A stretch of 64,000 nt of DNA from Octopus vulgaris. Taxonomy: Eukaryota. The notes below the pieces were generated by a model. That model was not told where the DNA came from and ran no database searches. It saw nothing but the letters and a program-made list of their open reading frames with translations. Below, piece by piece: positions 5,876 to 60,416 of the stretch (the stretch's first letter is position 1; every line of letters starts with the position of its first letter). A program made the translations under genes and the position numbers. Location: assembly GCA_951406725.2 (NCBI GenBank), contig OX597817.1, positions 34,534,001-34,598,000 on the forward strand. The letters run 5' to 3'.

Positions 5876-6476
5876 ACGGCGAGCTGGCAGAACAGTTAGC
5901 CCGCTGGGCGAAATGCTTAGCGGTATTTCGTCTGCCGTTATGTTCTGAGTTCAAATTCCGTCGAGGTCGACTTTGCTTTTCATCCTTTTTGGGTCGATAA
6001 ATTAAGTACCAGTTACGCGCACTGGGGTCGATATAATCGACTTTATCCCTTTGTCTGTCCTTGTTTGTCCACTCTATGGTTAGCCCCTTGTGGGTAGTAA
6101 AGAAATAGGTATTTCGTCTGCCGTTATGTTCTGAGTTCAAATTCCCCCGAGGTTGACTTTGCCTTTCATCCTTTCGGGGTCGATTAAATAAGTACCAGTT
6201 ACGCACTGGGGTCGATGTAATCGACTTAATCCGTCTGTCTGTCCTTGTTTGTCCTCTCTGTGTTTAGCCCCTTGTGGGTAGTAAAGAAATAGGTATTTCG
6301 TCTGCCGTTACGTTCTGAGTTCAAATTCCTCCGAGGTTGACTTTGCCTTTCATCCTTTCGGGGTCGATTAAATAAGTACCAGTTACGCACTGGGGTCGAT
6401 GTAATCGACTTAATCCCTTTGTCTGTCCTTGTTTGTCCTCTCTATGTTTAGCCCCTTGTAGGCAATAAAGAAATAA
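5876..6476 (+). mobile_element. SINE family B, head-to-tail trimer
   Basis: One tRNA-like head (ggcgagctggcagaa..gttag) followed by three ~184-bp units, with junctions gaaata|ggtatttcg at 6108 and 6292. Confidence 0.9.
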
Positions 6477-13728: not shown

Positions 13729-14136
13729 AGCTGGCAGAAACTTTAGCACGCCGGGCGAAATGCGTAGCCGTATTTCGTCTGCCGCTACGTTCTGTGTTCA
13801 AACTCCGTTGAGGTCGACTTTATCTTTCATCCTTTCGGGGTCGATAAATTAAGTACCAGTTACGCACTGGGGTCGATGTAATCGACTTAATCCGTTTGTC
13901 TGTCCTTATTTGTCCACTCTGTGTTTAGCCCCTTGTGGGTAGTAAAGAAATAGGTATTTCGTCTGTCTTTACGCTCTGAGTTCAAATTCCGTCGAGGTCG
14001 ACTTTGCCTTTCATCCTTTCAGGGACGTTTAAATAAGGACCAGTTACGCACTGGGGTCGATATAATCGACTTAATCCGTTTGTCTGTCCTTGTTTGCTCC
14101 CTCTATGTATAGCCCCTTGTGAGCAGTAAAGAAATA
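13729..14136 (+). mobile_element. SINE family B dimer inserted in the hAT transposase
   Basis: Unit junction at 13953; transposase homology continues on both sides; short aatctt duplication. Confidence 0.9.
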
Positions 14137-31654: not shown

Positions 31655-31716
<62 letters not shown>

Positions 31717-31727
31717 CTTGGAGCTGG

Positions 31728-31800
31728 CCAGATTGGAGCAATCTCAAGAATAATGAGACGAAATTGCGAGGATAATCTGGTTCTTGGCTGAAGATAGAAA
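31728..31800 (+). ncRNA. Candidate permuted (pseudoknotted) hammerhead ribozyme with k-turn, within (TA)n-embedded element 31714-31912
   Basis: ccagauu gGA gcaa UC ucaagaa uaaugagac GAAA uugc GAG GAu aaucugg uucuugg CUGAAGA; stems I and III and the outer helix all pair; stem II not evident. Confidence 0.6.
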
Positions 31801-32029
31801 ACTTCGAATGACCCGTCCTTGTTTTCTTTGTATCGTCTATCTGGATGTTTTGTTGTCCCTTTTTGTATCACTTAGTTGTCCGGATGTTTTGCGTTCTTGT
31901 CCTATTTTGTATTATATATATATATTCAGCTTTGTAAAGCTTCTGGAAAATGTGGGCAGTTTCTGGCTGGAGAGGGATATATATATATGGTCAAATATGT
32001 GACACAACCCTCACTGGAGACACGCCTAA

Positions 32030-32781: not shown

Positions 32782-32816
32782 GTTTCTGACGAAGAGCTCC
32801 GCTCGAAACGTTAAAC
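32782..32816 (+). ncRNA. Minimal type-I hammerhead ribozyme in (TA)n-embedded element 32730-32914
   Basis: guuu CUGACGA a gagc ucc gcuc GAAA CG UU aaac: intact core, 4-bp stems I and II, palindromic ACGU stem III (dimer type). Confidence 0.8.
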
Positions 32817-35698: not shown

Positions 35699-36161
35699 TA
35701 AATAAAATATATGCATACATACATACATATATGTACGTACCTACATCTACATGTATATATACATGCATATATAAATATATATACGTGAGTACAGGACACC
35801 ACAAATAGACGTAGAACTCAACGAGAGACGAAAACGTAAAAACAAACATGGAAACGGACCTTTTTTTAACAACAAAAAAACAGAGTACAAGACAAATAAC
35901 ACAAGGAAAATTCCCCTTCATCAGCTGTCCCTAGTTCGACTCCATGCGTGTTTCAAAGGTAAGGACAGAACACGACTCGTCGAACTAGCCCTTCCTGCGA
36001 AAGAATTAAACAAAATTCCTTTACAGAGGGGTAAAAACAAGGAAAGAAAAAAATGTGACAAAAACAGGACGTAAAAATAATACAAATAAAAAAACAAATA
36101 CAAAATAAAAATACAAATACAAAAAAATACAGTACAAGAAATAAAAACAAACAAGAAAACA

Positions 36162-36162: not shown

Positions 36163-36226
<64 letters not shown>

Positions 36227-36949
36227 CCTGATTTCATTAAGTTTCATATACAATGTATTAGTCATGTCATCCAAGCGTCCACTGCACAAGAAAAGAAATT
36301 CGTGGCATCATAAGAAAATAACCTCATGTTCTTCAATATCATCACTGTTAATTTGGAGCATCTTGCATTCAACAGAAGTGAACGGCGGTGGTCTACAAGA
36401 ACGGAAAACAGCCTGCATTTTGAGAAAGGTCGAATTTTACAATCAAATTGCGAAACGTAATGCCCGAAAATTGCAGGCCGTTGAGGTTCTGTGTGGTAGA
36501 AGACCTAGAGATAGTCTCACACCTCTTGTCTATGGTTGCATTACATTTTCAAAAACCGGGTTTGTTAAAGGCCACGCTACTGGAGATGTACGTGGCATAC
36601 TTATATGCATACAGGGCCAGCAGGCTCATCGGAGTACTGATGTCCTCTATGTTCAAAGATGTACTCTTCTACTGCTGGCTGAAAATCCATTTTCGATGAA
36701 TGTGTAAGAGCGGTGCTGCTATTGCTGTGATTTTTGACGAAATTATTTACTATATTTGACAAAAGAAATATATAACAAAATCCACAGCGAGGCTGTATAA
36801 CAAACACAACGACTTTTATGACTGTTTCATGTATCTAGTAATTTAGTCAATTTAATTAGATTACGAATGTAGTGACGACTAAAATCTTTGGCTAAGTCCC
36901 ATAAATTTTAACACACACAGACACATCTACGTATGCATTATATAAATAA

Positions 36950-59447: not shown

Positions 59448-60416
59448 TGTTAATAAAATATATGCATATATATAAACATATATGTACGTACCTACCTCTA
59501 CATGTACATATACACGCATATATGTGTACAGGACACCAAAAAGACGTCGAACACATAGAGAGACGAAAAACATAGACACAAACCAAGGAACAAGACAGGC
59601 AAAAAAAAAAAAAAAAAAAAAAAAGGAGATACAGGACAATAAGCACAACGAAAAATCCCCTTCTTCAGTCGCTAAAGTTTCATCTACTAAACGTTTCGAA
59701 GGATAAAAGCGAGACGTATACTTCGAATGAAAAATTCCTTCCTGCGAAAAGCAAATCAATTAAAATTCTGAGATCTTTTCGCAGAGGGGTAAAAAAAGCA
59801 AGACGGTAACGACAGTACAAACATATAAACAGTAAAAAATATATATATAAACAGTGGAAAAATAAATATATAACAGTGAGAGACAGGACAAGGAGAACAA
59901 GATAAGAAGGGCTGTTAACGCCAGACGAAAAAAGTATTGCAAACGCTGGATTATAGTGGACGACGAGAGAGGAAGATGTCGACCAGTGGCCTTAGAAGGC
60001 GGGCGAGAAAGGACAGGATAGCAGTTACGACGGAAGTATCGTCGCAGATGGACGACGGGAATGGGGGAGGAGGAGCAAGAGGAAGAGAGAGAAGAAGGGA
60101 ATGGTGCGAGGAGACCATGAAGAACAGTGAGGGGGAGAGAGAGAGGAAGAGACAAGTTAAGTGAGGGAAAAAAGAAGAAAAAGGGAATGGGAGAGAAAGA
60201 AAGAAAGATGCAGAGTCGCGTGAGAGTTAATATCAAGGCGAACTTGATAAACAGAACAATCTTACTTAATAGGGTGCGTGCGTTTAGTCGTATAATATGT
60301 TAATAAAATATATGCATATATATAAACATATATGTACGTACCTACCTCTACATGTACATATACACGCATATATGTGTACAGGACACCAAAAAGACGTCGA
60401 ACACATAGAGAGACGA
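59445..60416 (-). mobile_element. (TA)n-embedded 850-bp non-coding unit with 122-bp terminal direct repeat (retrozyme/Penelope-like)
   Basis: 59445-59566 is repeated at 60295-60416; internal ribozyme-like motif; no recognisable ORF. Confidence 0.75.
59655..59735 (-). ncRNA. Candidate permuted hammerhead ribozyme (GUC site)
   Basis: ..ACG UC UCGCU uuua UCCUUC GAAA CGU ..GA ugaaacuuu AGCGA CUGAAGA AGGGG; stems I and III differ in sequence from the 35.9-kb copy but still pair. Confidence 0.6.

Follow-up and report, generated by a model that had tools for sequence, protein, structure and literature searches.

Within a 64,000-nt stretch of the Octopus vulgaris genome that was analysed as a whole (the window), a short element carries the core motifs of the hammerhead ribozyme in a permuted order. 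The initial annotation saw in it a second, sequence-unrelated example of a layout also present at 35.9 kb, argued from the recurrence for a selected structure, and considered that stem II, for which no pairing was visible, might be dispensable or that the copy might be decayed. 

Layout and decay of the window copy

The element (31714..31912, + strand) is the 5'-truncated 3' end of a non-coding, (TA)n-inserted repeat, denoted family A. As first described, it is short and embedded in (TA)n, occupying 31714 to about 31912 between runs of this dinucleotide repeat. All elements of the permuted layout are found at 31728-31794, where the initial annotation placed them, but the motif itself begins 6 nt earlier, at 31722. 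Its order is stem II 5' strand, outer helix, stem III, cut site, stem I, short linker, stem II 3' strand, GAAA, stem III, outer helix, stem I and CUGANGA.

The stem II 5' strand (positions 10.1-10.5; 31722..31726), which has no bond to A9, precedes the 5' strand of the outer helix (31728..31734), which forms 7/7 pairs with 31774-80 at a pair probability of 1.0. The non-bulged strand of the k-turn (3n, G2n, A1n; 31735..31737) is followed by the stem III 5' strand together with U16.1 and C17 (31738..31743, C17 at 31743); stem III pairs 31738-42 with 31763-67 in all 5/5 positions. The predicted cut, after an AUC triplet, stays at 31743/31744. The post-cut strand of stem I (31744..31750) forms 7/7 pairs, one of them U.G, with 31781-87. 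Further downstream, 31755..31763 comprises the stem II 3' strand (31755-59) and GAAA (31760-63); 31764..31780 comprises the stem III 3' strand, the bulged strand of the k-turn (3-nt bulge, GA, U) and the outer helix 3' strand; and 31781..31794 comprises the stem I 3' strand and CUGAAGA (31788-94; C3-A9). A9 is the last base of the motif; no stem II strand follows. The outer helix passes into stem I with zero linker. The three helices, the k-turn elements and the missing linker are all as originally proposed.

A k-turn consists of a canonical helix, a 3-nt bulge and tandem G.A/A.G pairs. The window copy fits this sequence consensus, with tandem GA pairs, a 3-nt bulge and U.G as the next pair (31735-37/31768-73), and both GA steps are kept in 39/42 family-A copies. 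The claim that the k-turn is preserved thus stands for family A but does not extend to the layout at large: a strict automated rule recognizes a k-turn in 17/54 unselected hits across families, and by eye it is absent from the squid and clam-shrimp Naiads discussed below.

The core (CUGANGA, GAAA and NUH) is intact in the window copy and in 33/42 family-A copies, and stems I and III stand beside it as a hammerhead requires. In the notation of Eckert et al. 2023 (PMC10085705), hammerheads are assembled from block S (the cut site), block G (GAAA) and block C (CUGANGA with the adjoining strands of stems I and II). In the octopus element these blocks follow one another as S-G-C, and the motif does not form the nested junction with circular block order that defines types I, II and III. 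The permuted architecture, annotated initially as A-C-B, is thus present, although the block order itself had already been published as type SGC.

The remaining element is stem II. At its usual position, after CUGANGA, 0/5 pairs form in the window copy, as noted originally, and also in 38/42 family-A relatives. In the relatives, the five bases just before GAAA complement the five bases at the start of the motif, 1 nt ahead of the outer helix. Among 42 distinct family-A copies that span the motif, this upstream stem II (31722-26 with 31755-59) has 5 pairs in 30, 4 in 11 and 3 in one; the window copy has 2. A survey of genomic copies, as initially proposed, thus restores stem II in the family, by an upstream strand and not by the bases after CUGANGA. 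Likewise, the stem II closed by G10.1-C11.1 beside GAAA exists in the family through the upstream strand but not in the window copy. Because the 5' strand of stem II is the 5' start of the motif, the chain opens between A9 and G10.1, starting at G10.1 and ending at A9.

The window copy departs from the family majority at four positions, 31722, 31755, 31758 and 31787. The substitution at 31722, which turns G10.1 (G in 39/42 relatives) into A, and the two in the stem II 3' strand, at 31755 and 31758, break stem II, whereas that at 31787 gives the U.G pair in stem I; the window letters at 31755 and 31758 are shared with 2/42 and 0/42 relatives, respectively. In the predicted fold of the window copy, the mutated strand pairs over the cut site. 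Since stem II is down to 2/5 pairs where 30/42 relatives have all five, this copy is decayed, the second of the two options raised at the outset; stem II is lost here, not dispensable. The 31.7-kb copy is probably dead, and the interest lies in the family instead. Minimum free energy folding gives the 199-nt element an unremarkable z-score (+1.15), pseudoknots being outside the reach of this method; for the same reason, single-strand folding gives either stem II or the outer helix with stem III.

Host repeats and copy ends

The segment 31714-31912 has 2,320 first-look candidate matches in the genome, and the best 40 of the 2,320 show 93-100% identity. Family-A copies stop at a fixed 3' end at (TA)n and vary in how far they extend in the 5' direction; among them are partial tandems as well as 5' pieces in inverted orientation. 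Seven tandem pairs from related families consist of non-coding units of 699-926 nt with one hammerhead-type motif each. A young subfamily (L262, L263 and L264) has units of 844-855 nt that are 96-97% identical over their whole length, with identical motifs at many loci. Elsewhere in the window, 5922-6475 and 13770-14136 are arrays of a common interspersed repeat with a 184-nt tandem unit (3 and 2 copies, respectively), and an open frame after a (TA)n run at 36200-36707 (+ strand), with about 160 non-repetitive codons, is possibly a gene or transposon fragment.

These features resemble those of the Naiad Penelope-like elements (PLEs; Craig et al. 2021, PMC8557442). In the accessible text of that report, Naiads prefer (TA)n and 'lack canonical HHR', and eight are flagged as containing a 'half core', GAAA lying at a distance of 35-50 nt in either direction. 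Naiads and the octopus repeats share (TA)n targeting, 5' truncation, partial tandems, inverted 5' copies and tails. The Naiad ORF combines an N-terminal GIY-YIG with CxC, the DKA motif and RT, whereas families A and B, which, we infer, are linked to Naiad proteins, yielded no credible ORF either within the repeats or upstream.

Nineteen Naiad 3' ends from the supplement of the same report were parsed by eye rather than by script. The core-opened layout is recognizable in 4/19: Naiad_Ovul and Naiad_Obim, whose 3' UTRs also show a GUA site and a box C/D-like k-turn; the squid element Esco, which has a weaker stem II; and EuTe of a clam shrimp, which has a 6-bp upstream stem II. Neither Esco nor EuTe has a k-turn. 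By the same visual parsing, five nematode Naiads (Naiad_Ppac, Naiad_Parc and Naiad-1/2/3_Nbra) represent type CSG with full stems I-III and an extra (interaction) helix between the sequence before stem I and that after stem II, and the 3' UTR of the spider Naiad_Smim resembles plain SGC: its stems I and III are long, and CUGACGA is followed by a short stem II. The other nine of these 19 ends (Omin, Adux, Skow-1, Ppla, Dst-1 to -4 and Sdum) yielded no parse by eye. In the octopus genome itself, a 13-mer from the Naiad 3' UTR layout has 688 exact matches against 96 for the control. Of eight loci retrieved with a reverse transcriptase (RT) motif, two carry RT fragments that are followed, 1.3-1.45 kb downstream and in the same orientation, by the layout (family C, whose motif is also that of Naiad_Ovul); the RT fragments are broken and match RVT_1 with E values of 2e-4 and 1e-5, below the Pfam cut-off.

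The 5' ends of repeat copies were mapped on sets gathered by their 3' part only. In family A, 13/40 ends lie 0 to +12 nt past the predicted cut (p 2e-7), with 3.2 ends per 100 nt at risk at the cut compared to 0.1 just downstream and 0.4-1.0 in the upstream bins. Six further ends cluster in an AT-rich stretch at -169..-144, implying that microhomology or joins to (TA)n shape some of the 5' ends. Family B has 7/39 ends at 0..+12 nt (p 1e-3; 0.03 corrected for 28 windows), in a peak within sequence that lacks a TA step. In the autonomous Naiad family C, 3/30 ends are at the cut, which is not significant (p 0.19), and in an unselected set 17/87 assignable hits start at the predicted cut (0..+12 nt). 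Stalling of the RT would be expected at the 3' edge of the structure, where ends are rare. One tandem (L264) has a first copy that starts at the cut. For the 844-nt unit of L262, an 874-nt contig equals the unit plus 30 nt and closes into a cycle with no differences; that this run is RNA is only a guess, and tandem DNA would produce an identical cycle. At L262:1274 and 2118, an identical foreign sequence in three runs abuts a related motif, with the junction 7 nt past the predicted cut, which makes it another insertion starting at the cut site. Intact copies likely cut themselves.

We consider it probable that the window site is a decayed hammerhead-type motif whose chain runs from G10.1 to A9, and that intact copies, which are predicted to self-cleave after NUH, likely cut Naiad-related tandem transcripts into unit-length RNAs. 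The strongest competitor, itself unlikely, is a selected fold that does not cleave autonomously: a hammerhead-derived end structure that is bound by the Naiad RT, cut by a host nuclease or dependent on a k-turn-binding protein. The missing A9-G10.1 bond, the retention of the k-turn in family A, the weak 5'-end signal in the autonomous Naiad family and the weak in vitro cleavage of minimal PLE hammerheads (PMC4209133, in its accessible text) all point this way. Against it, CUGA-GA, GAAA, U16.1 and a non-G at position 17 persist across families with diverged helices, which is hard to account for without catalysis, and 5' ends are found at the predicted cut in two families.

Recurrence of the layout and covariation of stem II

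The layout is real and occurs far above chance. A descriptor that combines GAAA and a downstream CUGANGA with stem I of at least 5/6 pairs, stem III of 3/3 pairs and UH identifies three places in the window, at 31.7 kb (+ strand), 35.9 kb and 59.7 kb (both - strand), against one place in 300 Markov-resampled 64-kb windows, the false-positive check on randomised sequence that had been called for. The family-B copy (35918..35994, - strand; predicted cut 35969/35968) has the same layout with the same upstream strand and 5/5 stem II pairs, as does the third copy, from another family (59662..59741, - strand; predicted cut 59713/59712; 5/5 pairs). BLASTN detected no similarity between families A and B, in agreement with the description of the two copies as sequence-unrelated. 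In the whole 2.8-Gb genome, a sequence-only pattern (CGAAA-N6-9-GA-N13-19-CUGA(U/A)GA) has 7,814 matches with CUGAUGA and 12,062 with CUGAAGA, 19,876 altogether, compared to 227 and 379 (606) for the reversed pattern used as the control; 19,876 is a lower bound because the pattern spans 2/4 N7 variants and its last letter loses about 1/4 of the sites.

Upstream pairing was surveyed in the first 70 CUGAUGA and first 30 CUGAAGA hits in contig order, of which 64/100 retain an intact cut-site block. The upstream strand forms 5/5 pairs in 44/64 hits and at least 4 in 54/64, as opposed to 0 and 3 for two decoy windows of equal size, and the cut triplet is NUH in 61/64 intact hits. The strand pairs themselves vary by family: GGCUG/CAGCC, GGCCG/CGGCC, GAAGG/CCUUC, GAGCA/UGCUC, GACAC/GUGUC, GACGC/GCGUC and GCCCA/UGGGC.

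Covariation was assessed in 24 variants aligned with MAFFT, that is, 27 hand-picked representatives minus four that are truncated or poorly parsed (L270, L273, L275 and L287), plus the window copy. In this alignment, which leans toward the structure because each row was trimmed 4 nt before a strand picked by pairing, the upstream stem II reaches 94.2% pairing, and 4/5 of its pairs have changed on both sides. Its first pair is G-C in 23/24 variants, the window copy being the exception, with the C imposed by the search pattern. Stem I is 91% paired, compared to 25-52% in slid registers. Across families, stems I, II and III all show compensatory changes, and the covariation score is reached by 0/500 shuffles, a result inflated by the relatedness of the 24 variants. 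The argument that one layout with different helix sequences reflects selection is thus borne out by covariation across families and by the excess over resampled chance. Another helix that seems plausible by eye, joining the flanks before stem II and after A9, does no better than shuffles in 25/27 representatives and is rejected.

Two further readings bear on these data. It is very unlikely that the motif is an ordinary type-SGC hammerhead with stem II after CUGANGA, or one able to dispense with this stem: the block order fits, including the short stem I-stem II linker, B-type families reach up to 4/5 pairs after CUGANGA, and by eye the spider Naiad_Smim looks like plain SGC, but 0/64 hits form 5/5 pairs at that position, 60/64 are mismatched at 10.1-11.1, and pairing there (36.7%, against 33.3% in shuffled sequence) shows no covariation, in contrast to the strong covariation with the upstream strand. 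With no such pair in the window copy either, a stem II after CUGANGA is rejected. Even less credible is a chance pattern amplified by a repeat family, since, although copy number reflects transposition rather than selection and conservation within family A does not separate the core (0.98 of bases kept) from the flanks (0.96-0.99), many families with different helices retain the layout, resampled windows hardly ever produce it, it recurs by eye in squid and clam-shrimp Naiads, and covariation across families contradicts it. The reading that remains favoured is a hammerhead-type core whose stem II is closed by the upstream strand.

In several B-type families, including L182, L250 and L268, the sequence of the stem II 5' strand recurs in the bases starting at G8, so that this end of the core could compete for the stem II 3' strand; at slide -2, these bases are 65% paired with it. 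Such competing pairing is a possible off state.

Proposed mechanism and comparison with known hammerheads

In the proposed fold, the outer helix would connect all three stems at their distal ends, giving a closed cage in place of the loop-loop contact, the k-turn would bend stem III back to reach the outer helix, and A9 would stack on G10.1-C11.1 with no covalent bond between them. Tandem transcripts, once cleaved, would yield monomers with both ends held by stems II and III and the outer helix; with the ends staying paired, closure of circles by tRNA ligase or by self-ligation would be favoured. Supplied in trans, the Naiad RT/endonuclease would use (TA)n as its priming site; copying of cleaved RNA would leave short copies that start at the cut, and copying of uncut or circular RNA would leave partial tandems. 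The fold would be a circular permutation of the SGC/CSG class, and head-to-tail duplication could interconvert the forms.

More broadly, and with somewhat less assurance than for the window site, we favour the view that Naiads carry ribozymes that represent one closed-cage fold opened at different bonds, namely, CSG in nematodes, SGC in the spider and the form opened at A9/G10.1 in cephalopods and the clam shrimp. On this view, the core-opened form would be active, would break the inseparability of CUGANGA and stem II and would drive tens of thousands of circular-RNA retrozymes in the octopus, possibly gated by a host k-turn protein. It would be a hammerhead topology outside the six thought possible, with the backbone absent at a bond inside the core, and would bring non-circular permutations from rare metatranscriptome RNAs to an animal genome with tens of thousands of copies; the octopus copies offer many natural variants for structural work. 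Self-cutting by intact copies would explain the processing of Naiad RNA despite the reported lack of standard hammerheads, a published puzzle, and the head-to-tail repeats of Naiad-type elements would provide an evolutionary route between permutation types.

Rfam gives no gathering-score match in 6 loci, and the best 150 of 256 window matches are only repeat-driven noise of the miRNA type. In the literature searched, which covered few subscription papers, we found no precedent for an active hammerhead without the A9-G10.1 bond, no description of permuted hammerheads in Naiads and, the accessible text of Eckert et al. included, no earlier description of the core-opened form.

The closest relatives are the non-circular permutations described in the accessible text of Eckert et al. 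(PMC10085705), in which blocks are assumed to be uninterruptible, leaving six possible orders, with S-G-C as the validated non-circular type. Type SGC and the octopus motif share the order of cleavage site, GAAA and CUGANGA, a pseudoknotted core and a short linker between stems I and II (1-6 nt here). In SGC and CSG, moreover, a helix joins the sequence that precedes the block-C stem I strand to that following the stem II 5' strand, as it does here. The outer helix, which follows the stem II 5' strand as in Fig. 1C of that paper, appears to be the equivalent of this stem I-stem II 'interaction' helix; joining the ends of CSG and reopening the chain at A9/G10.1 would yield exactly the window layout, with the outer helix as Eckert's interaction helix. 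The differences are equally clear. Block C is contiguous in type SGC, whereas here it is split, with the ends between A9 and G10.1, a form that the six-type scheme excludes; and, unlike in the SGC and CSG types as described there, the interaction helix continues on both strands into stem III, in many cases via a k-turn. That search began from metatranscriptome contigs bearing hairpin ribozymes, with CSG known from only two similar sequences, whereas about 20,000 matches come here from an animal genome.

As repeats, the octopus elements are most like the metazoan non-LTR retrozymes, non-coding tandem units with one hammerhead each that have been proposed to be non-autonomous PLE derivatives (PMC7229834; bioRxiv 10.64898/2026.07.22.740005, both as far as accessible). 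The two groups are alike in having non-coding tandem units with a single hammerhead-type motif per unit. According to Cervera and de la Pena 2020 (PMC7229834) and Li et al. 2026 (bioRxiv 10.64898/2026.07.22.740005), processing of retrozymes yields both linear and circular monomers, and the metazoan monomers have been circularised in vitro by RtcB (PMC7229834). They contain type I hammerheads, the defining feature of non-LTR retrozymes, in units of 150-450 bp, whereas the octopus motif is not of type I and has a non-circularly permuted core in units of 699-926 nt that target (TA)n (PMC7229834; bioRxiv 10.64898/2026.07.22.740005).

A hammerhead of the minimal type I PLE kind, with canonical features (CUGACGA, one extra base, a 4-bp stem II and GAAAC), is present in the window at 32786-32810 (+ strand); it adjoins a (TA)n run 1 kb from the core-opened copy, so that both kinds occur in one genome. 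As described in the accessible text of PMC4209133, minimal PLE hammerheads resemble the octopus motif in their location near the PLE 3' end, the conserved G10.1-C11.1 and the irregular 9/10.1 step. They keep an extra base between 9 and 10.1, which suggests that this link tolerates change, and cleave poorly in vitro. The minimal forms are nested type I hammerheads that act as dimers, their stem III being very short or absent, whereas in the octopus motif stem III is complete and a monomer could fold by itself.
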